From Pseudomonadota bacterium (lineage in GTDB: Bacteria > Bdellovibrionota_B > Oligoflexia > Oligoflexales > RGVZ01), in assembly GCA_026390495.1 (NCBI GenBank), contig JAPLFV010000309.1:1-43893 (forward strand): 43,893 nucleotides of DNA. Direction: 5' to 3'. The notes under the pieces are model-generated. The model worked only from the letters and a program-made list of their open reading frames with translations. It searched no databases and was not told the DNA's origin. Below are positions 14,337 to 26,089 of this stretch, in pieces. Each line of letters starts with the position of its first letter. Positions within the stretch are counted from its first letter, which is position 1. The position numbers were made by a program, and so were the translations under genes.

Positions 14337-14393
14337 CCTAACTTATTGCTATTACACTGGAAAGTAATGGCGTCCCCAAGGGGATTCGAACCC
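14337..14393 (-). repeat. attL-type direct repeat containing an orphan copy of the last 26 nt of tRNA-Glu
   Basis: 57 bp, matching 25983..26039 at 56 of 57 positions (single mismatch: 14357 C versus 26003 A). Positions 14368..14393 equal the 3' acceptor/T-arm of the tRNA-Glu gene, CCA included. Confidence 0.9.
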
Positions 14394-14649
14394 TAACCTT
14401 ATGATTTTACAAGATTATTCCAACAACCCTAAACCATTGAGATTCTTGCACTACTGATCGAATTGCTGACGTCTATGGAGTCCATTGAATCCATTTAATT
14501 CTCTTCATTGCTCTCCCCTTTTTTGTACTAATCTAGAACGGATTTCAAAAACATTGATCATAGAATCAGTGGTTGTTTATATTATGGGCAAACGGGCAGT
14601 TATTTTGCCTTGGTAAGTTATACTTCAATTGATACAAATATAAGTCAGT

Positions 14650-15927
14650 ATGACAATTCCGCAAGATATAGACAATCTGCTTTCAATACGCTCGGAGACC
14701 GAACGTTTGGAGTTTAAAGCAGCTCAAAACAAATTTAGTTTTGAGCTGCTAGTAGACTATTGCGTGGCATTAGCAAATGAAGGCGGAGGTCGAATCATAC
14801 TCGGTATAACCGATAAGTATCCTAGAAAAGTTGTGGGAACATCTGCCTTCGAAATCCCTGAAAGAACAGTCTCAGGAATTTACGAAAGAATCGGCATCAA
14901 GGTGTCCTTTGAGGAGATCCAGCATCCGAGCGGAAGGGTTCTCATATTTCACGCACCTTCTCGTCCCAATGGAGCACCTATTCATCATAATGGTCGCTAT
15001 CTGATGCGTGCAGGTGACTCTCTTGTGCCAATGTCGCAAGATCAGCTTAGGTCCATCATCAAAGAAGGGGAAATGGAATGGACTTCACAAGCGGCAATGG
15101 TTAATTGCAGTGGGGATCAAGTCGTCCTGCTCCTTGATACACAATGCTATTTTGACTTGATGCAGTTACCCTATCCTGCAACGAGAGAATCTGTGCTTAG
15201 CCGTCTAGCCAACGAAAAGCTGATTTTCCAATCCTCTGATACTTGGACCATATCCAACTTGGGCGCAATTTTATTTGCAAAAAAGCTAGAGCAATTTGAT
15301 GGTTTATACCGTAAAGCACCAAGACTGATTTTGTATGAAGGATCCGATAAACTTAAGACAAAGACAGACAAGTCTATTAACAAGGGATATGCCGTTGCAT
15401 TTCAGCCGTTTGTTGAGCAGATTACCTCCGTCATGGTTGAAATTTATCAAAACAGGATTGAAATCTCGAATCCTGGTACTCCATTTATTTCACCCGATCG
15501 ATTCATCGATGAATACAAATCTAGAAACGAGCGTCTCGCTGATTTAATGAGACGGTTGGGCATTTGCGAAGAAAAGGGTAGTGGTATTGATAAAGTCATC
15601 AATACAGTGGAGTTATACCAACTTGCAGCGCCAGATTTTCGACTCGGAGAAAGGCGAATGTCCGTGGTATTATTTTCACATACGAACATAGATGATATGG
15701 ATCGCAATGATCGAATACGAGCCTGCTATCAGCATTGCTGTCTACGGTATGTCACCAATTCTAGAATGACCAACCAAAGTTTGAGAGACCGATTCAGTTT
15801 GCCTGATAGCAAGAGTGCGACTGTGTCACAAATTATTTCTGCAACCGCTGAAGCTGGAAAAATTAAGCCTGTAGATAAAAATCAATCCTCCACTCGATAT
15901 CGTTCTTATGTGCCATTTTGGGCGTAG
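14650..15927 (+). CDS. AlbA_2 (Schlafen-like) domain protein with a RecG-C-like HATPase_c_4 region and a C-terminal wHTH
   Basis: The N-terminus (ETERLEFKAA ... ALANEGGGRIILGITDK) is the AlbA_2 signature. RIEISNPG ... SRNERLADLMRRLGICEEKGSGIDKV matches the HATPase_c_4 block. Confidence 0.7.
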   Translation: MTIPQDIDNLLSIRSETERLEFKAAQNKFSFELLVDYCVALANEGGGRIILGITDKYPRKVVGTSAFEIPERTVSGIYERIGIKVSFEEIQHPSGRVLIFHAPSRPNGAPIHHNGRYLMRAGDSLVPMSQDQLRSIIKEGEMEWTSQAAMVNCSGDQVVLLLDTQCYFDLMQLPYPATRESVLSRLANEKLIFQSSDTWTISNLGAILFAKKLEQFDGLYRKAPRLILYEGSDKLKTKTDKSINKGYAVAFQPFVEQITSVMVEIYQNRIEISNPGTPFISPDRFIDEYKSRNERLADLMRRLGICEEKGSGIDKVINTVELYQLAAPDFRLGERRMSVVLFSHTNIDDMDRNDRIRACYQHCCLRYVTNSRMTNQSLRDRFSLPDSKSATVSQIISATAEAGKIKPVDKNQSSTRYRSYVPFWA

Positions 15928-16391
15928 TTTTGTTTAAAATCAAAAGCTCAAAATAGGCTAAAATTTTCCTAATCTTGCCCCCTCCTTCAAAGGAGTTATG
16001 CACTCGCACTAAAACGTAAAGATAAGCTTGCGTTTGACAAGGGCCAAAAGTTGGGCAATCTGTAAGTAAATTTAACGACTTAATAGGATATCTCGCTTCT
16101 CTCCCAAGCTTCAAAAGAAATGACATGCCGGATTTGCTGTCCTTTGCTTCAGGTATACATGTTGGTAACAACTGATTAAATTTTAATTACTTGATACGCT
16201 TCGATACAACTATCGATAATAGTAACCCGATCAATCTCTATCAATCTGTCTATGGGGCGAGGTTTAATGCTTCAGCGCCGTGTCCTATAAATCCCTTTGT
16301 TAAAAATCGTTCAAACAGAGAGCTAAACAAAGCAGAATTTACATCACTTTCGGTGAAATATCCTTTGTCATCTCGATGACTGATACCGCAT

Positions 16392-17195
16392 TCACGACTC
16401 ATACTTCTTAATTTCGTCATGTAGAGCTTTACGACGAATTGGGGCCTCGTAAATTTCATCAAGAAGGTGACGAAACAGGGCCGAGGTTGCGCTATAAAGC
16501 TTTGCATCATATTCCAGTTGTTTAGGGAAATTAATCGGATTTGGATGTCCGGCATCGTTACCAAGGTTCCTAATCGTTTTAAACAACTCGGTATCTAAAT
16601 TCAGTGCCCATTTCGGCGCCGTGCCTTTCTTAATATCATTTTCAAGCATTGTGATTTTGTTACCGCACGTCCCTTTATTGTATCCATTGTCCGCCAAAAG
16701 CGCGTCTATCGCTGACCTATGCATAATAACAGCGGCACTATGAGCACCAATGTTGGCGCTACAAAATGCCTGATCCAAATAATATTTTACAACTTCAGGT
16801 GTATTCGATGTACCTGGACCTCCTCCATGTTCATACAATGTCAAAAGTGAGTGTCCTCTTTGTGAGCGATGGATCAGCATCACTACACGCGCATTACAAT
16901 TAAGACAATTTCCACGCAACCCAACATCGATAAAAGTTTCAATTATAAAATCACTTATAGATTTGCTCTTTTGTCCATTCAATTTAGCTAAAGATATGCT
17001 CTTTGAAAAATCCAACTGATTCTTATGAATACTTTGCCAACTTCCGATGCTTTGTTTGAATGAGTGACGTTGAATATTTTTGCATAAAGCGCAATGGAGT
17101 AAGCCACTAAAACTTTGGTCGTTGTTTAGTCCGCTGTTACATCGTTCGATCAAAATCTTTACCAATGAATCCAAAGAATCTATCTGTACTGACAT
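16392..17195 (-). CDS. DUF4145-domain protein with an N-terminal Cys-pair (Zn-ribbon-like) region
   Basis: 267 aa. The C-terminal part (AAVIMHRSAIDALLADNGY ... TIRNLGNDAGHP) fits the DUF4145 helical pattern ending in GNxxxH. The N-terminal CALC and CLNC pairs suggest a zinc ribbon. Confidence 0.6.
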   Translation of the reverse strand: MSVQIDSLDSLVKILIERCNSGLNNDQSFSGLLHCALCKNIQRHSFKQSIGSWQSIHKNQLDFSKSISLAKLNGQKSKSISDFIIETFIDVGLRGNCLNCNARVVMLIHRSQRGHSLLTLYEHGGGPGTSNTPEVVKYYLDQAFCSANIGAHSAAVIMHRSAIDALLADNGYNKGTCGNKITMLENDIKKGTAPKWALNLDTELFKTIRNLGNDAGHPNPINFPKQLEYDAKLYSATSALFRHLLDEIYEAPIRRKALHDEIKKYES

Positions 17196-17562
17196 GTTAA
17201 CCCACCTTAATCTGGCTGCCCAGTCATTGAAAACACGATTTTACGAAGATTCTAAAAAATGTGCAACAAAACACATAGGGCACGATTTACCAATCTTTGT
17301 TAGAAAAAAGGACTATATCAAGATTAAATGCACGTTAATGTCAACTGCCAGATATCGTAAAAATATGGCAGAAATCGCTATTCACATAATGGCAATACGC
17401 ATCTCGTTTTTAGTGAAGCCAAGTGAAAAATAGAATGATGCAATAATGAAAATTTTAAAATTTCCAAAATAGTGAATGTTGAATTTGAGGCCCTAGCATT
17501 TGGTCTCTTTTATGAATACTAGTGATTGGCTTGAGGGATTGAAGTTCACATCATTAAATACT

Positions 17563-19296
17563 TTATACTTCCCTACGTAAGGGTAACCCAGCAGCCCGCA
17601 AGGCAGCATTCCAGGAACCAAATTTTGCCCTGTACCAAGCCATTGGTGGGGCCCATTCCACAAAATTCCTGTAGTGACTTCCTTTGCCCAATAATGGCTT
17701 TCCGCTTTCGCGGTAAGCTAATTGCAATATCTCAATAGCCTCTTTTTTACTTAACTTTCGAGACCTGCCTGCATCTGGCCTTCGAGATTTCAAATTGCAC
17801 CACTTCAGCCAAATGGAATAGGTTCCTGCTCTCTTAACCAAAACACCCAAATTTGGGAAATTTTTTAATCCCCGAACTTCATTGGCTGCAGGTACCTTCC
17901 CTTTGCATTGCTTCTTTACATAGTTTTTAAACACAGAAATTAACTGTTTGTCAGTGAGTTGCCTCCAATAGGCACTTGGAATTAAACTTCCTACAGCGAT
18001 AAGTGCGTTGGAATAATTTCCAAAAACTCGAGCGTATATCGCAGATGACATCAATCCATTCACAGGAGATAATTCGCGCTGTTTTGGAAATCTCCCGTGT
18101 TTAGCTTTAAAACAACGCAAATCATCTAACAATTCCTTCTTAGTAGGCAAACCTGCCTCCCTACTTATAGAATCTGTCATGCGCAAAATCGCTCTAATCC
18201 TTCGCAAAAGGAACTTCTTTCTTCGTGAATTTGATTTTTCAATTCTTTCGACTAGTTCGTCTGAGTAAACAAACCGCACTCTAGAGTCGCTAAATGACCC
18301 TCTATTGAGGCACCAAAACTCAATTCGTTTAAATACCTTGCTTCTAAGAAAACGATTAAGTTGTGCATTTGTATGAGATTCGTGAAAATAGGAAGACAGC
18401 TTTGCATCTATACCTAACTTAATGCTAGGTATATAGATATCTATGGAATTCCCGCGACTTTTGAGGAATTGGATTTGTTTTAAAACATTTCCTTTGCCAT
18501 AAATTTCTACTGCAATTTCATAGCATGTCTTTTCCCAAACTTTCCATAAGCGTCCTCCAACGCCAGCCCTCGGCTTGAGACCTGCGGCCGTAACAGCCTT
18601 CGACCAGGAGCCTCCAAACAATTTTGATATTTGAGAACCTGAGGGCCACAGGTTTAAGTGATCGTAGATTTGACGAGATGGGGTGGTTCCCAGTTTCTCA
18701 GAGGCCAGGCGAATTGCCTCCAGAGACCGTTTTTTAGTCGCCACATTTAAGTCGATTCCAGCAAGCCGAAATGCATTTTTCTTCCCATTGAGGCGCTTCA
18801 TAATGGTTGAATAGTCAGGTCCATTTGAAAAATCTGAAAGAATTGGCGGCCTGCCAAGACCACTCGCCAAATCTTTCAAATACGCAATCAGATCCTCATC
18901 TGAATATCTTTTAAATGTGCATTTTCGACACCAAGAGCCTCCCTTGAATTTGCCAACTGGAACTTTCCATTTGTGACCCATGGCACAAACAATACTTAAT
19001 TTTGTATTGTTTCTAATTGGTGTTGGAAGTGGCCCTAAAAGTTTACCTTTTCTTTCGCGAACCATCTTTAAAACAAATTCAGCAGAAACCGGATCTCTCC
19101 TGGCACAGGTTGGGCACCCAGTGCCACCCCACTTAAGATTCCCAAACTTCGCTTCAAAGAGATGGTCTGATTTACATTTGACCTTAATTTTTGTGTGACA
19201 ATTTTTGTATTGTCCACGCAATTCAAAACCCCTCTTTTTAAGTACGCTTTCGACATCGCTTTGTGAAAGAGGTCTCAATTTTTTATCTACCTTCAA
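17563..19296 (-). CDS. zinc-ribbon + homing-endonuclease-associated-repeat (HEAR) protein with a central PD-(D/E)xK-like motif
   Basis: 577 aa. Two treble-clef-like ribbons: C41/H45...C61xxC64 and C104/H108...C123xxC126. At least four HEAR-like units end in FGGSWSKAVTAAGL, FGNYSNALIAVG, FGSWNAALRAAGL and NAFRLAGI. The central region reads E260...D286(IDIY)...D297-A-K299. Confidence 0.55.
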   Translation of the reverse strand: MKVDKKLRPLSQSDVESVLKKRGFELRGQYKNCHTKIKVKCKSDHLFEAKFGNLKWGGTGCPTCARRDPVSAEFVLKMVRERKGKLLGPLPTPIRNNTKLSIVCAMGHKWKVPVGKFKGGSWCRKCTFKRYSDEDLIAYLKDLASGLGRPPILSDFSNGPDYSTIMKRLNGKKNAFRLAGIDLNVATKKRSLEAIRLASEKLGTTPSRQIYDHLNLWPSGSQISKLFGGSWSKAVTAAGLKPRAGVGGRLWKVWEKTCYEIAVEIYGKGNVLKQIQFLKSRGNSIDIYIPSIKLGIDAKLSSYFHESHTNAQLNRFLRSKVFKRIEFWCLNRGSFSDSRVRFVYSDELVERIEKSNSRRKKFLLRRIRAILRMTDSISREAGLPTKKELLDDLRCFKAKHGRFPKQRELSPVNGLMSSAIYARVFGNYSNALIAVGSLIPSAYWRQLTDKQLISVFKNYVKKQCKGKVPAANEVRGLKNFPNLGVLVKRAGTYSIWLKWCNLKSRRPDAGRSRKLSKKEAIEILQLAYRESGKPLLGKGSHYRNFVEWAPPMAWYRAKFGSWNAALRAAGLPLRREV

Positions 19297-19388
19297 AAGA
19301 AATTACCTGATCAGAGATCGCCACTCTATTTAGTGTATCAATAAATTAGGCACCAATTCTATCTCGGTTAAAATTTGTTTATTCTGTA

Positions 19389-19610
19389 TTAATTAAAGAA
19401 ATTTGAAATCTCGGTATTTAGTGCAATGGCTAAACGATGAAGCGTTTGAAGATTCGGACTATATGTACCGCTTTCTAGTTTTTGGTAGTGCCGATAATTG
19501 AATCCGTAATCCGCCATATCTTCCTGCGTTAATCCACGTTCCAGACGAAGGCGCCGAATATTGCTAGATAGTATCTTTAAAATTTTCCCATAATCTCGTT
19601 GAATTCTCAT
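19389..19610 (-). CDS. XRE-family (HTH_3) transcriptional regulator
   Basis: 73 aa. IRRLRLERGLTQEDMAD ... YQKLESG ... LQTLHRLAIALN is a canonical Cro/C1-type HTH. It lies 92 bp upstream of, and co-directional with, the 577-aa gene. Confidence 0.85.
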   Translation of the reverse strand: MRIQRDYGKILKILSSNIRRLRLERGLTQEDMADYGFNYRHYQKLESGTYSPNLQTLHRLAIALNTEISNFFN

Positions 19611-19739
19611 TATTTAACTATGATTGACACGATCTATAAGAACCACGTCCTATAAATTTCGTGGTCTTAGTTCCGAAAAACCATTGGCCTTGGAGATGGA
19701 CTCCAAAAGATCAACTCCTACAAAAATTGGGCGGATACA

Positions 19740-20690
19740 ATGACCTGTAACAGGTATCTTAGAATGTTGAGTTTGTGCTTCATATTGTTACTTTCAATTC
19801 AAGCGCGTGCAGATATTGGCTATTCAGTTGATGAATTGAACGCAATTTATGCGGGGAATGAGTTTGCTGCAAATTCGAAATTCAAAGGCAAACAAACAAT
19901 TATACGTGGTGTCATTGACAATATATCCAGGGATGCTATTGGTGTGCCGACAGTCTATTTGAAATCAAACTCGCGAGGAATACTATCACGCGGAATTGCA
20001 TGTAAATTTCTCAAAAAGGCAGAATCTCAACTCGAAAAATTGTCTCCAGATCAAATAGCTTTTCTTAAAGGAAGATTGATTGGTAAGGCTCCTATTGGCG
20101 GAGACTTGGTTGCAAAAGACTGTGAGCTAGTCTCATTGAAGGGCGACTTCAAATTTTCCGATATCAAAAAAATCAAAAAGCTTCAAGGTAGTCCTTCTGC
20201 TCCTTTCGATCTCAAGTGGGGTATGAGTCAAGAAGATGCAAAGAAGCTACTTTCAGGAAAGCTTAATTTCACTGGAGTAGAAGCCAAAGACTCGGCAAAC
20301 ATGAATATGGTTGGCGACACAATACAAAATTTTGAAGGTGAATTTGCGGGTTTTCCCTCTACGCGATCCCAATTAGAATTCTCTGCAGACGGTCTGATTT
20401 CTGTTGGGATTGAGATAGAAAAAAGACCTGGCAACACCGCAAAGGACACATTTGAGAAAGTATTACAAATGATCACAGCTAAGTATGGTCGACCTTCGAA
20501 GGAAATCAATCTCCAAGCATTTATTTGGCGCTATAATTCACACATTTACCTCTTGAGTTTCAATGCTGGGAATGATTCAAGCAGTTGGTTCGCTATGGAA
20601 GAAAATACTTTTTTAAAATTAGAAAACGCTCAAGACAGAAACAGCAAAGAATTACAGAAAAATCCTAAAGATCAAACTAACGATTTTTAA
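19740..20690 (+). CDS. secreted protein with an N-terminal OB-fold (tRNA_anti-like) region
   Basis: Signal peptide LSLCFILLLSIQARA. ELNAIYAGNEFAANSKFKGKQTIIRGVIDNISRD resembles the tRNA_anti-like OB-fold family. I do not recognise the rest. Confidence 0.45.
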   Translation: MTCNRYLRMLSLCFILLLSIQARADIGYSVDELNAIYAGNEFAANSKFKGKQTIIRGVIDNISRDAIGVPTVYLKSNSRGILSRGIACKFLKKAESQLEKLSPDQIAFLKGRLIGKAPIGGDLVAKDCELVSLKGDFKFSDIKKIKKLQGSPSAPFDLKWGMSQEDAKKLLSGKLNFTGVEAKDSANMNMVGDTIQNFEGEFAGFPSTRSQLEFSADGLISVGIEIEKRPGNTAKDTFEKVLQMITAKYGRPSKEINLQAFIWRYNSHIYLLSFNAGNDSSSWFAMEENTFLKLENAQDRNSKELQKNPKDQTNDF

Positions 20691-20986
20691 TCTGTCTTTG
20701 AATCTGCTCCCACAAAAACAACCTTTATTTCGCTGGCCTCTGAAAAGTCTACGGTCTTATCAATTGTCTTTCTGCGAGCATCGCAATATTCCAACAGTGA
20801 CAAATGCGCTTTAACGCGATCCCTAGGATTTTCCAGCAATTCAATATCTTGAATGAGCCGTTCGATAATATCGTAATCAAGTTCACGCAATCGTTCCGCA
20901 ACTCCAAAGAATTCGGATCTTTTATTAGGGGTGCCTATTTTTCGGCCGCTGCCTTCCGGCTTGTTGCAACCCTTTGGTCTACCCAT
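20687..20986 (-). CDS. hypothetical small basic protein (phage-like GRPKG/GTPNK N-terminus)
   Basis: 99-aa ORF convergent with the previous gene, overlapping it by 4 bp. The N-terminus MGRPKGCNKPEGSGRKIGTPNKRS looks like a DNA-binding tail. No family recognised. Confidence 0.35.
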   Translation of the reverse strand: MGRPKGCNKPEGSGRKIGTPNKRSEFFGVAERLRELDYDIIERLIQDIELLENPRDRVKAHLSLLEYCDARRKTIDKTVDFSEASEIKVVFVGADSKTD

Positions 20987-21084
20987 ATCTTAATTTACCT
21001 ACTTTAGAAAAAGTTCTTATTGCTTCCACATCTCGATAATAATACATCCTATCAGGATCAGTAAGCTTCCCACAAGATCATGGA

Positions 21085-22062
21085 TTGGAATGGCAGATGA
21101 CTCCCAAAAACAAAGCTAATCTCGGTGCATCGGCATTTTTAATTACTTACAGCAATATGACAGTTGATGAATGCCAATTTTTTTGGAACTCCGGCCTTAA
21201 AGATTACTTCGATATCGGATTAAAATTGCTTGAAAAAAGACTTGGGAAACCGAATAGCAATGGATTTGACGGCCCACTTTTTTCGGCCAGTCAGTTGAAT
21301 GACCTTCATTTATATATAGAGGATATCTTAACCCTAATCGAGTCAGACCGTGTATCGTGTTTGATCAAGGCCTCAAATCAAGCCAAGGTTAGTACAGGCA
21401 ACTTAAGGAACTCCAAAAGACCTGTTGACCAAATTCACAAATCGTTTTTAAACCCACAAAATGCAGCTTCATTTCGCTCCAATTTGTATTTAGCTCGAAG
21501 AAACCACAAAAAAGATTTCCTAATGAAAAGGAAATCAGTCAATCTCGAACAATTTAATGCCAAACTCCAATATAAAGACATCCGACTTTTTTCGAATAAG
21601 GTTTTTCGCAATATTCCTGGCGAAAAAAAAGTGCGCTATGGTGCTAATAAATTCAATGAAAGCGAGACTAGAGGAATTGCTGTCTTGTATATGATCGAGC
21701 TAATCTGGATGAATATAAAGCCATTTGTTAAAGGTGGAATCGCGAGTGGAGACCAACTTTCCACCTTCATGTCCTTAGCTTTGCAACTTCCTTCACTTTT
21801 GGATGAGTCCAATCGATTTCTTGAAAATTCAATGTCAGGGAAACTGAAGCGCAAACAAGGTAAGGATCCGATCAAACAGTTTATCTCATCGGAATTGAAG
21901 AATAATTCTCGCGTTAATACCAGCGTTCTTGCCAAAAGAGTCCTTTCTCTGTTTGACGAATCATCTAGCGATTTAGAGGACACACCTAGCCAGAGATCTA
22001 TTGAGGATTTGATACGGAAAGTAAGAAAAAATTTACGCGGAACCGGTTCCTGTAAAAAGTAA
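21085..22062 (+). CDS. hypothetical protein, first gene of the island's plus-strand operon
   Basis: 325-aa ORF followed by tightly packed co-directional genes. No recognisable motif. Confidence 0.4.
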   Translation: MEWQMTPKNKANLGASAFLITYSNMTVDECQFFWNSGLKDYFDIGLKLLEKRLGKPNSNGFDGPLFSASQLNDLHLYIEDILTLIESDRVSCLIKASNQAKVSTGNLRNSKRPVDQIHKSFLNPQNAASFRSNLYLARRNHKKDFLMKRKSVNLEQFNAKLQYKDIRLFSNKVFRNIPGEKKVRYGANKFNESETRGIAVLYMIELIWMNIKPFVKGGIASGDQLSTFMSLALQLPSLLDESNRFLENSMSGKLKRKQGKDPIKQFISSELKNNSRVNTSVLAKRVLSLFDESSSDLEDTPSQRSIEDLIRKVRKNLRGTGSCKK

Positions 22063-22142
22063 TAATATAGGCTTCCCTCCATCAATGGCTGGGAAGGGTG
22101 GAATGGTTTCTTGTCTTTCCCAGCCTCCAATCGGGAGGCAAT

Positions 22143-22364
22143 ATGAATCTAGAAAAACTCAAAAACAATCTGGAATCTAAACAACTAGAGGTAATCGATT
22201 TTTACCGAGGAATCGTCTTAGATCTCCTACAGCAAGAACTGGAGGGATGTGACGACTGGCACTACCTCAGGAGTCGACTGCTGAAGGCATTTGGCGATCG
22301 CGGCCTAGCTGGACGACTTAAGCAAGTATTGATTGCAGAGTTTAGCGAGGCTTCCAATGGATAA
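22143..22364 (+). CDS. hypothetical small protein
   Basis: The ATG at 22143 is preceded by GGGAGG, and the stop overlaps the next gene's start. About 73 aa, helical and acidic. Confidence 0.4.
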   Translation: MNLEKLKNNLESKQLEVIDFYRGIVLDLLQQELEGCDDWHYLRSRLLKAFGDRGLAGRLKQVLIAEFSEASNG

Positions 22365-22680
22365 GCAAAATTCTAGTTTAGAAGTTCGACAGATCCCCTT
22401 TAAAGAAATTGCCGCTTTGGCTCAAAGCAGATGCCGCAATTTGATTCCTACTATTTTGCCAGAAGGAGTCGAAAAGTCTGGCGAATGGATATCAAGAAAT
22501 CCTCGTCGAAACGACAAATCATTGGGTTCATTTAAGTTCAATTTAAACACGGGACTTTGGGCTGATTTCGCTACGGGAGACTGTGGAGGCGACATAATCA
22601 GCTTGATCGCGTACCTGGATCAATCATCGCAATTGAATGCGGCAAGAAAACTTATGAAAATAATGGGAGACAGAATATGA
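22357..22680 (+). CDS. primase N-terminal zinc-finger-like domain protein with degenerate (Cys-less) metal ligands
   Basis: GEWISRNPRRNDKSLGSFKFNLNTGLWADFATGDCGGDIISLIAYL matches the pattern at the N-terminus of P4-alpha/TraC-type primases, where the usual cysteines are replaced. ATGA overlap with the next ORF. Confidence 0.55.
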   Translation: MDKQNSSLEVRQIPFKEIAALAQSRCRNLIPTILPEGVEKSGEWISRNPRRNDKSLGSFKFNLNTGLWADFATGDCGGDIISLIAYLDQSSQLNAARKLMKIMGDRI

Positions 22681-24293
22681 ATCAAACTACAAGTAAGCCG
22701 AGATTAACTGCAGAGAACCGCGACATACCACCTAGTGTTTACCATCATAAAGTTCATGGAAAGCCACAAATTTTAGCGCACTATGCAAATGAAAATGATG
22801 AGACAGTTTTTTATGTCGCGATTTGGTACCCAAAAGGTAAAGACAAAATAGTTCTACCTTTCTGCTATGAGGCACAAAATGGCGAAGCTATTTGGACATC
22901 CAATTGGCCAACTAAAGCCAGACCGCTTTATCACTTGCCAAGACTGATAAGCAGATCAGCCAAGCCAGTTCTAATCGTCGAAGGCGAAAAGACTGCTGAT
23001 GCTGCATCCTTGATCTTCACAGATCTTGTCGTGACAACAACATCAGGAGGATCCAATTCCGCTTCAAAAACTGATCTATTGCCTCTATGTGGACGCGACG
23101 TGATAATTTGGCCGGATAACGACAAGCCAGGGGAAAAGTATTGCAACAGGTTGACCGCACTTCTGTCCAAGATCGGCGTCAAATCAGTCCGTGTCGTTAA
23201 CGTCCCTAAGACATTCCCTACAAAGTGGGACTTAGCAGATCCTCTACCTACTGGCGTTCAAGAGACCGATCTTTACGAGCTTATACAAAAATCTGAATCA
23301 ATCGAAGTAATCGATACAGATCGCGAACTGAAGCTAACTAGCTTAGAGCACATCGTAGAAGAGCCAATTGAGTATATTTGGGAACCATACATTCCACGCG
23401 GAAATCTTACAATTTTTGATGGTGATCCCGGGACGGGCAAATCCACTCTGCTTTTAGCTCTAGCAAGTGCAATCAGCAATGGAGTTGGACTGTCACCAAA
23501 TCATTTTCCTAAGGTTGGAAAAACGCTGTTTCTATCATGCGAAGATAGTTTACCACAAAGAGTGGTCCCAGGACTGAAAGCATATCAAGCCAATATTGAA
23601 CAAATTCTTTGGTATGAAGATGCTTTCACTTTAGATCAAGAAGGGCTCCTGAAACTTAAATATACGGCGGAAAAATGGAAACCAGATTTAGTGGTTATCG
23701 ACCCAATTGTTGCCTACATTGGCGAAAAAGTTGACACCAACACAGCAAACAAGGTTCGAGGTATCATTGGCCCTTTAGCAAAATTAGCTAGGAGTTTGAA
23801 TTGTGCAATCTTAGCCGTTAGACATTTAAACAAGGATTCAAATGGCGGCTCGCTTTTGTATCGCGGTCAGGGCTCGATCGACTTTATTGCCGCAGCAAGG
23901 TCAGGAATGGCATTTGTGCAAAATCCAGAAATTCCGAATTCGAGAATTCTAGTTCACCACAAATCAAATTTATCTGCTTTGGGCCCCTCAATTGAATTTG
24001 AATTTCGAGAAGGCAAATTAAGTTACCTGGGAGCTAGCCAGTTGACCGCTAGAGATTGGGCAAACTGCAATCAAACGAATCGTCCTTTAAGAGAAATTGA
24101 GAAAGCCGCAAAAATTATCCAAGAAACTTTGGAAGAAGGGATTAGACCGTCTACTGAAGTGAAAGAGGTAGCCAAGAAGAATGGAATCACCGAAGGCACC
24201 TTTTGGAGGGCAGTCAAATCAGAGGGAATAATCCGTAAGAAAAGTGCTGGAAAGAATGGTTGCTGGACCATGCAAGCCCCAAAGGCTGACTAA
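22677..24293 (+). CDS. Toprim domain + RecA-like (AAA_25/RepA-type) ATPase: primase-helicase replication protein
   Basis: Toprim motifs LIVEGEKTADAA and IIWPDNDKPG. Walker A is DGDPGTGKST and Walker B is LVVIDPIVAY, followed by VRHLNKD. Confidence 0.8.
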   Translation: MNQTTSKPRLTAENRDIPPSVYHHKVHGKPQILAHYANENDETVFYVAIWYPKGKDKIVLPFCYEAQNGEAIWTSNWPTKARPLYHLPRLISRSAKPVLIVEGEKTADAASLIFTDLVVTTTSGGSNSASKTDLLPLCGRDVIIWPDNDKPGEKYCNRLTALLSKIGVKSVRVVNVPKTFPTKWDLADPLPTGVQETDLYELIQKSESIEVIDTDRELKLTSLEHIVEEPIEYIWEPYIPRGNLTIFDGDPGTGKSTLLLALASAISNGVGLSPNHFPKVGKTLFLSCEDSLPQRVVPGLKAYQANIEQILWYEDAFTLDQEGLLKLKYTAEKWKPDLVVIDPIVAYIGEKVDTNTANKVRGIIGPLAKLARSLNCAILAVRHLNKDSNGGSLLYRGQGSIDFIAAARSGMAFVQNPEIPNSRILVHHKSNLSALGPSIEFEFREGKLSYLGASQLTARDWANCNQTNRPLREIEKAAKIIQETLEEGIRPSTEVKEVAKKNGITEGTFWRAVKSEGIIRKKSAGKNGCWTMQAPKAD

Positions 24294-24390
24294 AGCTATA
24301 ACAATACAAAGAACCTGGGGGGGTGAACATAACAATCTTAGGCATCTTGCCAATCTTATAAGTATCAACATCCAACCAAAGGTTAGCAAG

Positions 24391-24417
24391 ATGTCGAAGT
24401 TGTCGAAGATGTTGAAG
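24391..24417. repeat. three tandem 9-bp iteron-like repeats, (A/T)TGT(C/T)GAAG
   Basis: ATGTCGAAG TTGTCGAAG ATGTTGAAG are contiguous, inside the 180-bp spacer between the helicase gene and the excisionase-like gene. The same spacer also has ATAACAAT x2 and CAATCTTA x2. Confidence 0.5.
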
Positions 24418-24473
24418 TTTTGCCCCCAGAAATCAAAACCCATACGAACTAACGCGATCAAGAAGGGGCTTTA

Positions 24474-24761
24474 ATGAACAATAAAGCGCTAAAGCAAGGC
24501 AATATTCATTTAAAAAATACTGGAAATCGAATATCTCAGAAACAATGGTCCTATATGGCCAAATCTGATTCCCAGCTCTTTGACAATCATTCTTGTTTAT
24601 TATCCGCAAAGGAGGTCTCTCGGCTTTTAGGTGTGGCAGAAAAATCTGTCTACCGATGGGCCAAGGACTACAGAATCCCATGTATAAACATTGGACGATG
24701 TGTGAGATTTAGACCAGAAGACATAGAGGCAATTCGATCAGGAATGCGAGGTCTCAGCTAA
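24474..24761 (+). CDS. excisionase/AlpA-type (MerR-like HTH_17) DNA-binding protein
   Basis: LLSAKEVSRLLGVAEKSVYRWAKDYRIPCINIGRCVRFRPEDIEAI, immediately upstream of the integrase. The true start may be the internal Met at 24552. Confidence 0.7.
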   Translation: MNNKALKQGNIHLKNTGNRISQKQWSYMAKSDSQLFDNHSCLLSAKEVSRLLGVAEKSVYRWAKDYRIPCINIGRCVRFRPEDIEAIRSGMRGLS

Positions 24762-24776
24762 CAACTGAGGAATCAA

Positions 24777-25898
24777 ATGAAGATTGAAAAAAGAAAACGA
24801 AAAACATGTGTGAGGTATCGCGCTCGCTTTATGATGAACAATTCAGAATTTAGGTCATCATGGCTTGATTCTGAAAAGCTCGCTAAAGACTGGGCCTCAC
24901 AAAAACGGACTGAGATATTGGCAGGGCAAGTGAATACTGGAGTGGCTATGCCGCTTTCAATGTTCGCAGCGCTCTGGATTGAAAAGCATGTTGAGCCAAA
25001 CAAAGAACACTCGGCAGGAATGAGAGACAAACAAGTCTTAAGACGGCATGTGTTACCTAAGTTAGGTCATGTGAAGTTGCGAAGCCTTAACACTCAGCAA
25101 ATTGAATTTCTATTGGCTGACATCAAGCGAAGTGGTTTGATTAAACCAAAGACGATCAACAATTTGCTCGGGACAGTAAAGAAAATGCTCAACGATGCAG
25201 TACGGTGGGGAATGATCCAACACAATCCTGCATCAGCAATTCGACCGCTCAAGATTCAGCGCCAAGAAGTAACGACTTTTACCAGTGAAGAGACTCGAGT
25301 TTTGCTTGGGCATACTCACCAGCACTTCATTGAGGAGTATAGACTTATCGTCTTTGCGTTGAACACTGGCTGTAGGTTAGGGGAGTGTCTTGGTCTCGAC
25401 TGGAGTAAGGTTGATCTTCAACAGGGTACCGCACTAATTGATTCCATATTTGATGGTAGCCTTCGGAAAGTCGTTATGAGAACCAAAGGCAAAAAGTTTC
25501 GCAAAATCCCTTTAAATGAATCCATTTGTAAAGTTCTTCGCGAAATGGCGCTTGATGGAAGAAAGGCTGAAAGCCCCCTGATCTTTTCAAGGATAGACTA
25601 CGAGTATCTTTCACACGAGAAATTTAAACGAATATTGAAAAGTGCTGGCTTGGAAATGGCGTTATCAAGACGGGCAACATTCCATTCACTCAGGCATACA
25701 TTCGCCAGTGAATTTATGAGGCAAAGTGGAAATTTATACGACCTTCAGCATATTCTTGGACATTCGACGATTACCCAAACGGAGAAATATGCGCATTTCG
25801 CACCAAGCCACATGTTTGGATTAACCAATCGTGTGACATTTGCAGCACCGGTAAGCAATCTAATTGCGATGACAAAACTAGAAACGAAAGTAATGTGA
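24777..25898 (+). CDS. int: tyrosine site-specific recombinase (phage-type integrase)
   Basis: 373 aa with the catalytic signature TGCRLGE (Arg), HSLRHTFAS (HxxR) and LGHSTITQTEKYAH (His and the Tyr nucleophile). RBS is GAGGA. The gene ends 85 bp from the att repeat. Confidence 0.93.
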   Translation: MKIEKRKRKTCVRYRARFMMNNSEFRSSWLDSEKLAKDWASQKRTEILAGQVNTGVAMPLSMFAALWIEKHVEPNKEHSAGMRDKQVLRRHVLPKLGHVKLRSLNTQQIEFLLADIKRSGLIKPKTINNLLGTVKKMLNDAVRWGMIQHNPASAIRPLKIQRQEVTTFTSEETRVLLGHTHQHFIEEYRLIVFALNTGCRLGECLGLDWSKVDLQQGTALIDSIFDGSLRKVVMRTKGKKFRKIPLNESICKVLREMALDGRKAESPLIFSRIDYEYLSHEKFKRILKSAGLEMALSRRATFHSLRHTFASEFMRQSGNLYDLQHILGHSTITQTEKYAHFAPSHMFGLTNRVTFAAPVSNLIAMTKLETKVM

Positions 25899-25982
25899 TT
25901 TTTGTGCTATTGACGCATAGCTAGATGAAAAGGAATGAACACAGTTTGCCCCAAAATTTGCCCCAAATGGGCAATTTCAAGA

Positions 25983-26039
25983 CCTAACTTATTGCTATTA
26001 CAATGGAAAGTAATGGCGTCCCCAAGGGGATTCGAACCC
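25983..26039 (-). repeat. attR-type direct repeat: 31 bp downstream of tRNA-Glu plus the last 26 nt of the gene
   Basis: Partner of 14337..14393, matching at 56 of 57 positions. Confidence 0.9.
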
Positions 26040-26089
26040 CTGTATCCACCGTGAAAGGGTGGTGTCCTGGGCCTCTAGACGATGGGGAC
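26014..26089 (-). tRNA. tRNA-Glu (anticodon UUC), CCA encoded
   Basis: The reverse complement is GTCCCCATCGTCTAGAGGCCCAGGACACCACCCTTTCACGGTGGATACAGGGGTTCGAATCCCCTTGGGGACGCCA, close to E. coli tRNA-Glu, with anticodon loop CTTTCAC. Confidence 0.95.

Follow-up and report, generated by a model that had tools for sequence, protein, structure and literature searches.

We analysed a 43,893-nucleotide contig from a bacterium of the order Oligoflexales (JAPLFV010000309.1, assembly GCA_026390495.1; the whole stretch is called the window below) and concentrated on three genes at positions 16392-19610, which encode a protein of 267 amino acids (aa), a protein of 577 aa and a 73-aa XRE-family regulator. 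The three open reading frames (ORFs) are adjacent and co-directional, all on the minus strand (Table 1), and lie in one arm of an island. A preliminary description, made from the sequence alone, had read them as a candidate defence or addiction cassette in the cargo arm of that island. The arrangement itself was confirmed: the ORFs, the attachment (att) repeats and the integrase, excisionase and primase genes are all there. The region is probably a cargo arm that holds independently mobile stand-alone genes and not one system.

Table 1. Features of the three-gene region and of the island that carries it (positions in the window).
Feature	Position	Strand	Remarks
425-aa Schlafen AlbA_2/HATPase_c_4 gene	14650-15927	+	
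Three genes of interest (267 aa, 577 aa, 73 aa)	16392-19610	-	
Gene for the 267-aa protein, well-supported divergent RAZR (PD-T7-4) family member	16392-17195	-	ATG start
DUF4145/HEPN RNase-type domain, residues about 130-255	16431-16808	-	R160, R209-x7-H217, N219
Cys4 zinc-ribbon domain, residues about 31-104	16884-17105	-	C35-x2-C38...C97-x2-C100
Spacer between nuclease and RAZR-like genes, 367 nt	17196-17562	-	
Gene for the 577-aa modular nuclease	17563-19296	-	listed start TTG
HEAR repeats 3-5, residues 385-572	17581-18144	-	best HNH_repeat stretch, residues 385-436
Central PD-(D/E)xK domain, residues 243-380	18157-18570	-	E255/D286/D297/K299; outside every Pfam model
HEAR repeats 1-2, residues 131-242	18571-18906	-	boundaries by eye
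Two tandem treble-clef zinc fingers, CapR/DUF4379 type, residues 19-128	18913-19242	-	presumed DNA-binding
Gene for the 73-aa XRE-family HTH regulator	19389-19610	-	ATG start; Pfam HTH_3, E=1.8e-10
129-nt region between the XRE gene and the divergent 316-aa gene on the plus strand	19611-19739	.	candidate operator
316-aa tRNA_anti-like OB-fold protein, signal-peptide-like N-terminus	19740-20690	+	Pfam E=2.8e-9; phrog_13333 (function unknown)
Toprim/AAA_25 primase-helicase	22677-24293	+	
HTH_17 excisionase	24474-24761	+	
Tyrosine integrase	24777-25898	+	
Short island ORFs without family match	several	both	

The 267-aa protein as a probable divergent member of the RAZR family

The 267-aa protein joins a zinc ribbon of four cysteines to a C-terminal DUF4145 domain, which Pfam (PF13643) recognised over residues 148-222 with 28.6 bits against a cut-off of 23.1 bits. 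Both the CxxC pairs and the DUF4145-type C-terminus had been named in the preliminary description. DUF4145 is a HEPN RNase family for which fusions to zinc ribbons are on record (Anantharaman et al. 2013, PMC3710099). A homologue search with the single sequence returned one relative only, P0007 (E=4.5e-37), and a profile of these two sequences gathered 71 clusters, mostly of 250-300 aa. We counted conservation over an alignment of 58 of the 71. C38, C97, C100, R160 and H217 were invariant, and C35 and N219 were each present in 57 members. The spacer between the two cysteine knuckles ranged from 27 to 76 residues (median 38; 58 in the window protein), which agrees with a variable specificity domain. 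When the family profile of the zinc ribbon (residues about 35-100) was searched, it repeatedly gave weak matches to the ribosomal zinc ribbons of the eL42/L44e type (best E=0.011).

The family is linked to a known defence protein. The PADLOC model of PD-T7-4 (PDLC04109) matched 30 of the 58 members with a best E-value of 1.5e-9, and P0007 aligned over residues 32-250 with positions 4-190 of the 211 in the model (E=4.7e-5), an alignment that covers both domains. The window protein matched the phage family phrog_1305 nearly from end to end (E=5.4e-10). PD-T7-4 is RAZR (ring-activated zinc-finger RNase), a single-gene system of E. coli UMB1727 (Zhang et al., Nature 2026, PMC13017515). As described in that paper, RAZR starts with a Cys4 zinc-ribbon domain, which a linker joins to a DUF4145/HEPN domain at the C-terminus; its catalytic residues are R146 and H154, and it forms a 24-mer around phage portal or recombinase rings and cleaves RNA non-specifically, and the infection is aborted (PMC13017515). 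Its zinc-finger domain, which was likened to RPB9, sets the specificity and is the most variable part (PMC13017515). Judged by their spacing, R209 and H217 of the window protein would be equivalent to R146 and H154. That the 267-aa protein is a divergent RAZR-family member, missed by current defence models, is thus a well-supported reading of the sequences, reached by way of its relatives. The defence flavour that the preliminary description gave to the DUF4145 gene is borne out by this link. The description had not recognised the three-gene combination as any named system; by this reading the 267-aa gene belongs to a divergent branch of one that has a name and a solved mechanism.

A predicted modular nuclease with a catalytic core outside current models

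The 577-aa protein has the layout of DNA-binding modules around a nuclease domain: two CapR/DUF4379 zinc fingers, homing-endonuclease-associated repeats (HEAR) and a PD-(D/E)xK core. The Pfam CapR homology domain scored 24.2 bits, exactly the cut-off, and the DUF4379 treble clef fell below its cut-off (E=0.015). The zinc ligands C41/H45/C61/C64 and C104/H108/C123/C126, each of the form C-x3-H...C-x2-C, were invariant in the homologue P0002 (46% identity), which bears out the two treble-clef-like ribbons proposed earlier. Residues 12-139 matched the non-catalytic parts of phrog_559 ('HNH endonuclease') and phrog_681 ('endonuclease') with E ~1e-17. Zinc fingers of the CapR, DUF723 and DUF4379 types serve free-standing phage homing endonucleases as DNA-binding modules; the repressor CapR of the PLE satellite is a domesticated one (PMC10448857).

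The Pfam HNH_repeat model (HEAR) matched the protein in four stretches (E=9.4e-36 for the whole protein), in keeping with the earlier count of at least four repeats. A fifth, at about residues 447-503, was assigned by eye only, and phrog_22655 matched residues 446-575 (E=2.4e-22). We found no usable literature on what HEAR repeats do, so that DNA binding by these repeats is our assumption. The gene may also be slightly shorter than listed: a second TTG lies at position 19278 (codon 7), preceded by GAAGG ~11 nt upstream, and because the alignment with P0002 begins at this codon, the true start may be there and the protein 571 aa long.

The catalytic core was matched by no Pfam, NCBIfam or PADLOC model, and PADLOC contains no member of its family; PADLOC and NCBIfam gave no specific match for either large protein as a whole. 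Searched at full length, the 577-aa protein had one close homologue, P0002, among 5.8 billion clusters. With residues 240-385 as the query, an exhaustive HMMER search of 1.84 billion proteins yielded 46 representatives. HEAR repeats accompany the core in 43 of the 44 relatives that were scanned, and DUF4379/CapR/DUF723 zinc fingers are found in a few relatives as well, at one end or the other. In GTDB genomes the full-length profile found only proteins that share the N-terminal zinc-finger module, and an alignment of seven core sequences had no match in viral, genome or metagenome contigs.

Residue conservation in the core was counted over 45 family members. The consensus reads W..W(E/Q)...PD.Y.P...L.ID.(K/M)TS.Y...Q...EFWC. 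W254 was invariant, and D286, D/E297 and C329 (in the EFWC motif) were each conserved in 44 members. The preliminary description had proposed a catalytic arrangement of E260, D286, D297 and K299. The last three were correct, but position 260 is variable (E in 14 members, D in 11, K in 8) and the conserved acid of the helix is at position 255 (E in 32, Q in 13). The window protein has the full canonical set of E255, D286, D297 and K299. A catalytically dead, domesticated regulator resembling CapR was rejected as unlikely because all four of these residues are intact.

Structure prediction supported the nuclease fold that had been suggested for the central domain. The AlphaFold2 model of the core, built on the 45-sequence alignment (pLDDT 90.9, pTM 0.86), has an alpha-beta-beta-beta-alpha-beta core (helices at model residues 9-27 and 67-80; strands at 33-37, 45-50, 55-62 and 85-92). 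Foldseek matched it to a PD-(D/E)XK nuclease among viral models (BFVD; E=3.2e-5, prob 1.00) and to many further endonucleases. The viral matches included a treble-clef zinc-finger protein of a Listeria phage, annotated homing endonucleases of Staphylococcus, Bacillus and Rhizobium phages, and DUF559 and Vsr proteins. In the Protein Data Bank (PDB) the best match was Ecl18kI (prob 0.90), followed by the Cap4 nuclease and BamHI. The family profile found the PDB entry 3k93, a 'phage related exonuclease' (E=0.0087), with the motifs aligned (DIYVPSRKLIIDTK against DIyipkkkliIDAK).

One further protein deserves mention. P0005 (554 aa) is a DUF4379/DUF723 zinc-finger protein with a GNAT domain, and its core, EIDIYIPHLKIGFEYNG, resembles the window sequence SIDIYIPSIKLGIDAKL. 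The likeness is a weak local phmmer match (E=1e-6 in a small local set) and hints that the new core may be related to the E-x-N type endonuclease cores that share these zinc fingers.

The two large genes were not found together at other loci

Co-occurrence of the two large genes had been set beforehand as the test of a single system. We inspected eight other loci of the nuclease family and four other distinct loci of the RAZR-like family. A DUF4145 gene neighboured the nuclease at none of the eight, and a HEAR nuclease neighboured the RAZR-like gene at none of the four. The single-system reading fails on this result, and with it the claim of one three-gene cassette. A small XRE gene directly upstream of the nuclease was likewise absent from all eight nuclease loci.

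The neighbours of the nuclease were diverse. P0009 comes after terminase genes, in a phage-like element that also encodes a primase, and P0011 lies near an HsdR_N-like gene and AbiE. P0017 (L121:387-7187) is in a small integrase/HTH_17/TraG element, where it adjoins a 658-aa reverse transcriptase and a Gp49/HI1420 (HigBA-like) pair, so that this too is a compact cargo arm. P0012 is in an integrase/HTH_17/resolvase element with an unrelated 237-aa gene downstream; four nuclease loci, that of the window included, are in elements with an integrase and HTH_17. P0010 adjoins an insertion sequence (IS) element and a 239-aa XRE protein, P0021 adjoins metabolic genes, and P0008 has no small co-directional gene downstream. 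The flanks of P0002 are unrelated to this island, and its downstream gene is convergent. Two possible hidden links were rejected. The 237-aa gene that follows P0012 has neither similarity to the DUF4145 protein nor a Pfam match, and the P0002 flanking genes, compared with the island genes because a 130-aa and a 99-aa ORF look alike by eye, showed no similarity to them.

The RAZR-like genes also had varied company: AbiH at one locus, an AlbA_2/HATPase_c_4 gene with ToxN nearby at another, unknown genes at a third, and integrase genes on either side at the fourth. The three contigs with the AlbA_2 neighbour (L012-L014) were counted as one observation because their gene coordinates around the match are identical and the contigs differ only further downstream.

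The spacer between the two large genes of the window points the same way. It contains a promoter-like TGCACA-16-TAAAAT at 17265-17238, and reading the sequence revealed no minus-strand ORF of more than 14 aa. We considered a regulatory RNA in the spacer and dropped it, since the predicted structure did not exceed that of shuffled sequences (z=+0.88) and Rfam gave no match. The varied neighbours and the promoter-like site are consistent with a RAZR-like gene that would act as a single-gene system.

The XRE gene and the island

The third gene was correctly called an XRE HTH regulator in the preliminary description. Its product matched a PHROG transcriptional repressor (E=8e-12) as well as the PADLOC HTH_VI and restriction-modification 'Control_protein' models (E=1e-7 to 2e-4); the 'Control_protein' matches are weak and no better than generic XRE matches. 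The gene lies 92 nt upstream of the nuclease gene and is divergent from the 316-aa OB-fold gene and from the island's rightward arm, at the end of which the genes for primase, excisionase and integrase are found. The divergent intergenic region contains two 12-nt direct repeats, CACGATCTATAA and CACGTCCTATAA, at 19628-19655, and an imperfect 20-nt palindrome at 19640-19673 overlaps them; these are short matches. The stretch at 19628-19673 is a plausible candidate operator, judged by its repeats and palindrome. The XRE protein probably autoregulates from it, and may also control the leftward transcript, nuclease included, or the whole island. It may thus be an island repressor, a nuclease controller or both.

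Two direct repeats of 57 nt, 98% identical to each other, bound the island at 14337-14393 (left) and 25983-26039 (right). The second of these att repeats overlaps the 3' end of a tRNA-Glu gene (26014-26089), and together they delimit an element of ~11.6 kb, at about 14394-25982. With its integrase, excisionase and primase the island looks satellite-like. No match to a terminase small subunit or a capsid-related protein was found in it, and no packaging or capsid-redirection gene was recognised. Pfam scans of all island ORFs of at least 95 aa revealed no methyltransferase domain, and the 99-, 115- and 325-aa ORFs had no Pfam or PHROG match. A search for sister islands through the primase-helicase found only relatives of at most 48% identity in unrelated taxa.

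Housekeeping genes flank the island: carAB, a thiolase and an asparagine synthase gene. CarB is 75-78% identical to the proteins of metagenome-assembled genomes of uncultured freshwater Oligoflexales, which places the host among the uncultured Bdellovibrionota. The top CarB match (78%) is on a contig labelled 'uncultured Polynucleobacter sp.' (L019, CAZUYQ010000127.1), and all next-best matches are from Oligoflexales; that contig is probably mis-binned.

Discussion

Taken together, these results suggest that the island probably carries two independent stand-alone cargo genes, one for a RAZR-type, trigger-activated HEPN RNase that would abort infection and one for a long-site PD-(D/E)xK endonuclease that would derive from homing endonucleases. 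The reverse proposal, that the XRE gene and the two large genes form a single defence or addiction system with, for example, a sensor and an effector, is highly improbable. It would account for the adjacency and common direction of the genes, for the lack of a terminator-like site between them, for the zinc-ribbon modules and nuclease-type domains that both large proteins have, and for the setting in island cargo. Yet the two families co-occur in none of the 12 other distinct loci, the pairing with an XRE gene is not kept there, the large genes are 367 nt apart, with a promoter-like site in the spacer, and RAZR works as a single gene (PMC13017515). A smaller unit, in which the XRE protein would delay expression of the nuclease in a new host as a controller protein does, and the nuclease would be a solitary restriction enzyme, modification-dependent or with a very rare site, is also unlikely. 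The short distance between the two genes, the 'Control_protein' matches (E=2e-4 to 6e-3), the repeats and palindrome upstream of the XRE gene and the fold matches to the type II restriction enzymes Ecl18kI and BamHI all speak for it. But the island has no methyltransferase, the 'Control_protein' matches are not better than generic ones, the pairing recurs at none of the other eight loci, and the XRE gene sits where the master repressor of the island would be expected, divergent from the arm for replication, excision and integration.

The RAZR-like gene could instead belong with the 425-aa AlbA_2/HATPase_c_4 gene in a two-gene module. Elsewhere (L012:6794-8305, and L013 and L014) the RAZR-like P0057 is followed at 11-38 nt by a co-directional gene with AlbA_2 and HATPase_c_4 domains, and the same two architectures are neighbours in the window. 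This is nonetheless very unlikely. The domain pair is common in mobile elements, in the window the genes converge across a gap of 465 nt, the two AlbA_2 proteins share only 21% identity, and the three other distinct RAZR-like loci have no AlbA_2 gene; moreover, RAZR is sufficient alone (PMC13017515). The two genes may be close by chance, as cargo of defence islands, or may be loosely associated.

The strongest competitor concerns the nuclease alone. It could be a selfish free-standing homing endonuclease, which cuts a site that lacks the gene, copies itself by repair and benefits neither island nor host, so that its defence neighbour would be incidental. We regard this as doubtful but by no means negligible. 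A protein of DNA-binding repeats and a nuclease has the layout typical of such enzymes (PMC10448857); the best structural matches include annotated phage homing endonucleases, a treble-clef protein and DUF559 and Vsr proteins; and the gene moves independently of its neighbours. P0009, directly after terminase genes, occupies the classic position of a homing endonuclease, and P0010 is flanked by an IS element. On the other hand, the region has neither an intron nor an intein nor a split gene, a homing site or a presence/absence polymorphism could not be demonstrated, and patterns of the close subfamily found no relative in 2.9 million viral contigs. Several relatives are in the cargo of integrative elements beside Abi, toxin-antitoxin or reverse-transcriptase genes, and not between conserved phage genes. 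The preliminary description had allowed for a plain free-standing homing endonuclease: the architecture and the homing-type structural matches agree with it, while the missing intron or intein and the cargo neighbours do not.

Several observations weigh against reading the region as two stand-alone genes of these kinds. The co-occurrence sample is about a dozen mostly short metagenomic contigs, and no terminator-like site was found between the 577-aa and 267-aa genes, so that read-through and co-transcription are possible. The RAZR link is transitive, because the window protein did not match the PADLOC PD-T7-4 model at E<=1 and matched no PDB chain: searches of the PDB with the protein itself, the two-sequence profile and the 58-sequence profile found no RAZR chain, which is either absent from the PDB copy or too divergent. 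Its single-sequence AlphaFold2 model (pLDDT 35) was unusable. Most of the family (48 of 58) has K at position 209, which would correspond to R146 of RAZR, and R is found in 7 members, the window protein among them. As to the nuclease, the matches to solved enzymes are weak (TM ~0.35; best PDB E=5e-3), and the close-subfamily patterns found no member in GTDB representative genomes or in the viral contigs of IMG/VR. Position 299 is K in 29 of the 45 members and M in 14.

This last substitution merits a comment of its own. In the 14 members the codon that corresponds to nucleotides 18400-18402 of the window encodes M (ID-A-M-T) while D286 and D/E297 are conserved. Either these members are inactive or domesticated, or another residue takes the role of the lysine.

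If the two genes act independently, their modes of action can be sketched. By analogy to RAZR, the 267-aa protein would stay dormant as long as its variable zinc-ribbon domain has no large phage ring, for instance a portal or a recombinase, to bind. Bound to the ring, it would assemble into an active oligomer, whose non-specific RNA cleavage would halt translation and make the infection abortive. The 577-aa protein probably cuts DNA at specific sequences, whether as a selfish gene product or in conflict with rival elements: a long DNA site would be recognised by its two zinc fingers and its four or five HEAR repeats, and the central PD-(D/E)xK domain, with E255, D286, D297 and K299, would cut the DNA. 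Since the island has no methyltransferase, self-protection would rest on a host that lacks the long target site. The island may use the nuclease as a weapon on phages or rival elements, comparable to Odn, CapR and NixI, which derive from homing endonucleases, in the conflict between ICP1 and PLE. We slightly favour this role because of the cargo neighbours of the nuclease genes; purely selfish homing is almost as likely. A bolder and quite tentative extension is that the nucleases form an undescribed family of long-site enzymes, with a core set among arrays of HEAR repeats and zinc fingers. Integrative islands and satellites would have turned these former homing endonucleases into a sequence-programmed weapon that needs no methylase and is aimed at particular phages or competing mobile elements. 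If true, this family would be a general counterpart, outside Vibrio, of the Odn/NixI/CapR logic of the ICP1-PLE conflict.

The two proteins matter for different reasons. The 267-aa branch exposes a gap in the detection of RAZR: the PD-T7-4 model catches 30 of 58 members and misses the window protein. Counts of RAZR-type immunity in Bdellovibrionota and other environmental phyla may therefore be too low. The evolution of trigger specificity could be studied on the zinc-ribbon inserts, which vary greatly. The nuclease family, rare and yet to be characterised, combines a core without a model with HEAR repeats; if it cuts long specific sites, its members are candidates for the biology of conflict between elements and for new rare-cutting enzymes. 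There is also a caution about method, that adjacent co-directional genes in island cargo need a co-occurrence test before they are called one system. Nothing in the three-gene region overturns expectations. The RAZR family and the homing-endonuclease architecture are known kinds; the divergent RAZR branch and the catalytic core that no Pfam, NCBIfam or PADLOC model covers are new.

Comparison with known systems

The island resembles phage satellites of the phage-inducible chromosomal island (PICI) and PLE kinds in having an integrase with att repeats, an excisionase and a primase of its own. Within it, the 267-aa protein has the layout of RAZR, from the N-terminal Cys4 zinc ribbon through the linker to the C-terminal DUF4145/HEPN domain, and R209/H217 have the R-x7-H spacing of R146/H154. 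In both, the zinc-finger domain is the most variable part, and the 267-aa family would likewise work as a stand-alone gene, with variable neighbours in defence and mobile-element contexts. The window protein differs from RAZR in being ~55 residues longer than the 211-position PD-T7-4 model, with ~30 additional helical residues at the N-terminus and 58 residues between the cysteine knuckles, and in coming from an Oligoflexales host and not from E. coli UMB1727; most of its subfamily also has K in place of R146.

The 577-aa protein shares its tandem fingers joined to a nuclease with the phage homing endonucleases that carry CapR, DUF723 or DUF4379 fingers, such as the T5orf172 enzymes of ICP1, and its fingers with CapR of PLE (PMC10448857, PMC8096241). 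Like them it is modular and rich in repeats, and it is found on an element that resembles a satellite (integrase, excisionase, primase). Its nuclease is of the PD-(D/E)xK type, however, and not T5orf172/GIY-YIG or HNH, and the nuclease domain has a central place, with HEAR repeats on both sides; the CapR match reaches only the Pfam cut-off. With the HEAR-repeat proteins (HNH_repeat, PF18780) it shares four or five repeats, but the Pfam name ties the repeat to HNH homing endonucleases, whereas the partner here is a PD-(D/E)xK nuclease. In its predicted model the core has the alpha-beta-beta-beta-alpha-beta fold of the PD-(D/E)xK superfamily, with E...PD...(D/E)xK in the expected elements. The TM-scores to known structures are only 0.35-0.58, the invariant W254 and the EFWC motif with C329 are signatures of this family, and roughly one member in three has M for the catalytic K. 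The nearest detectable members of the superfamily are viral PD-(D/E)XK nucleases, DUF559 and Vsr-type proteins, 3k93 and the restriction enzymes Ecl18kI and BamHI.

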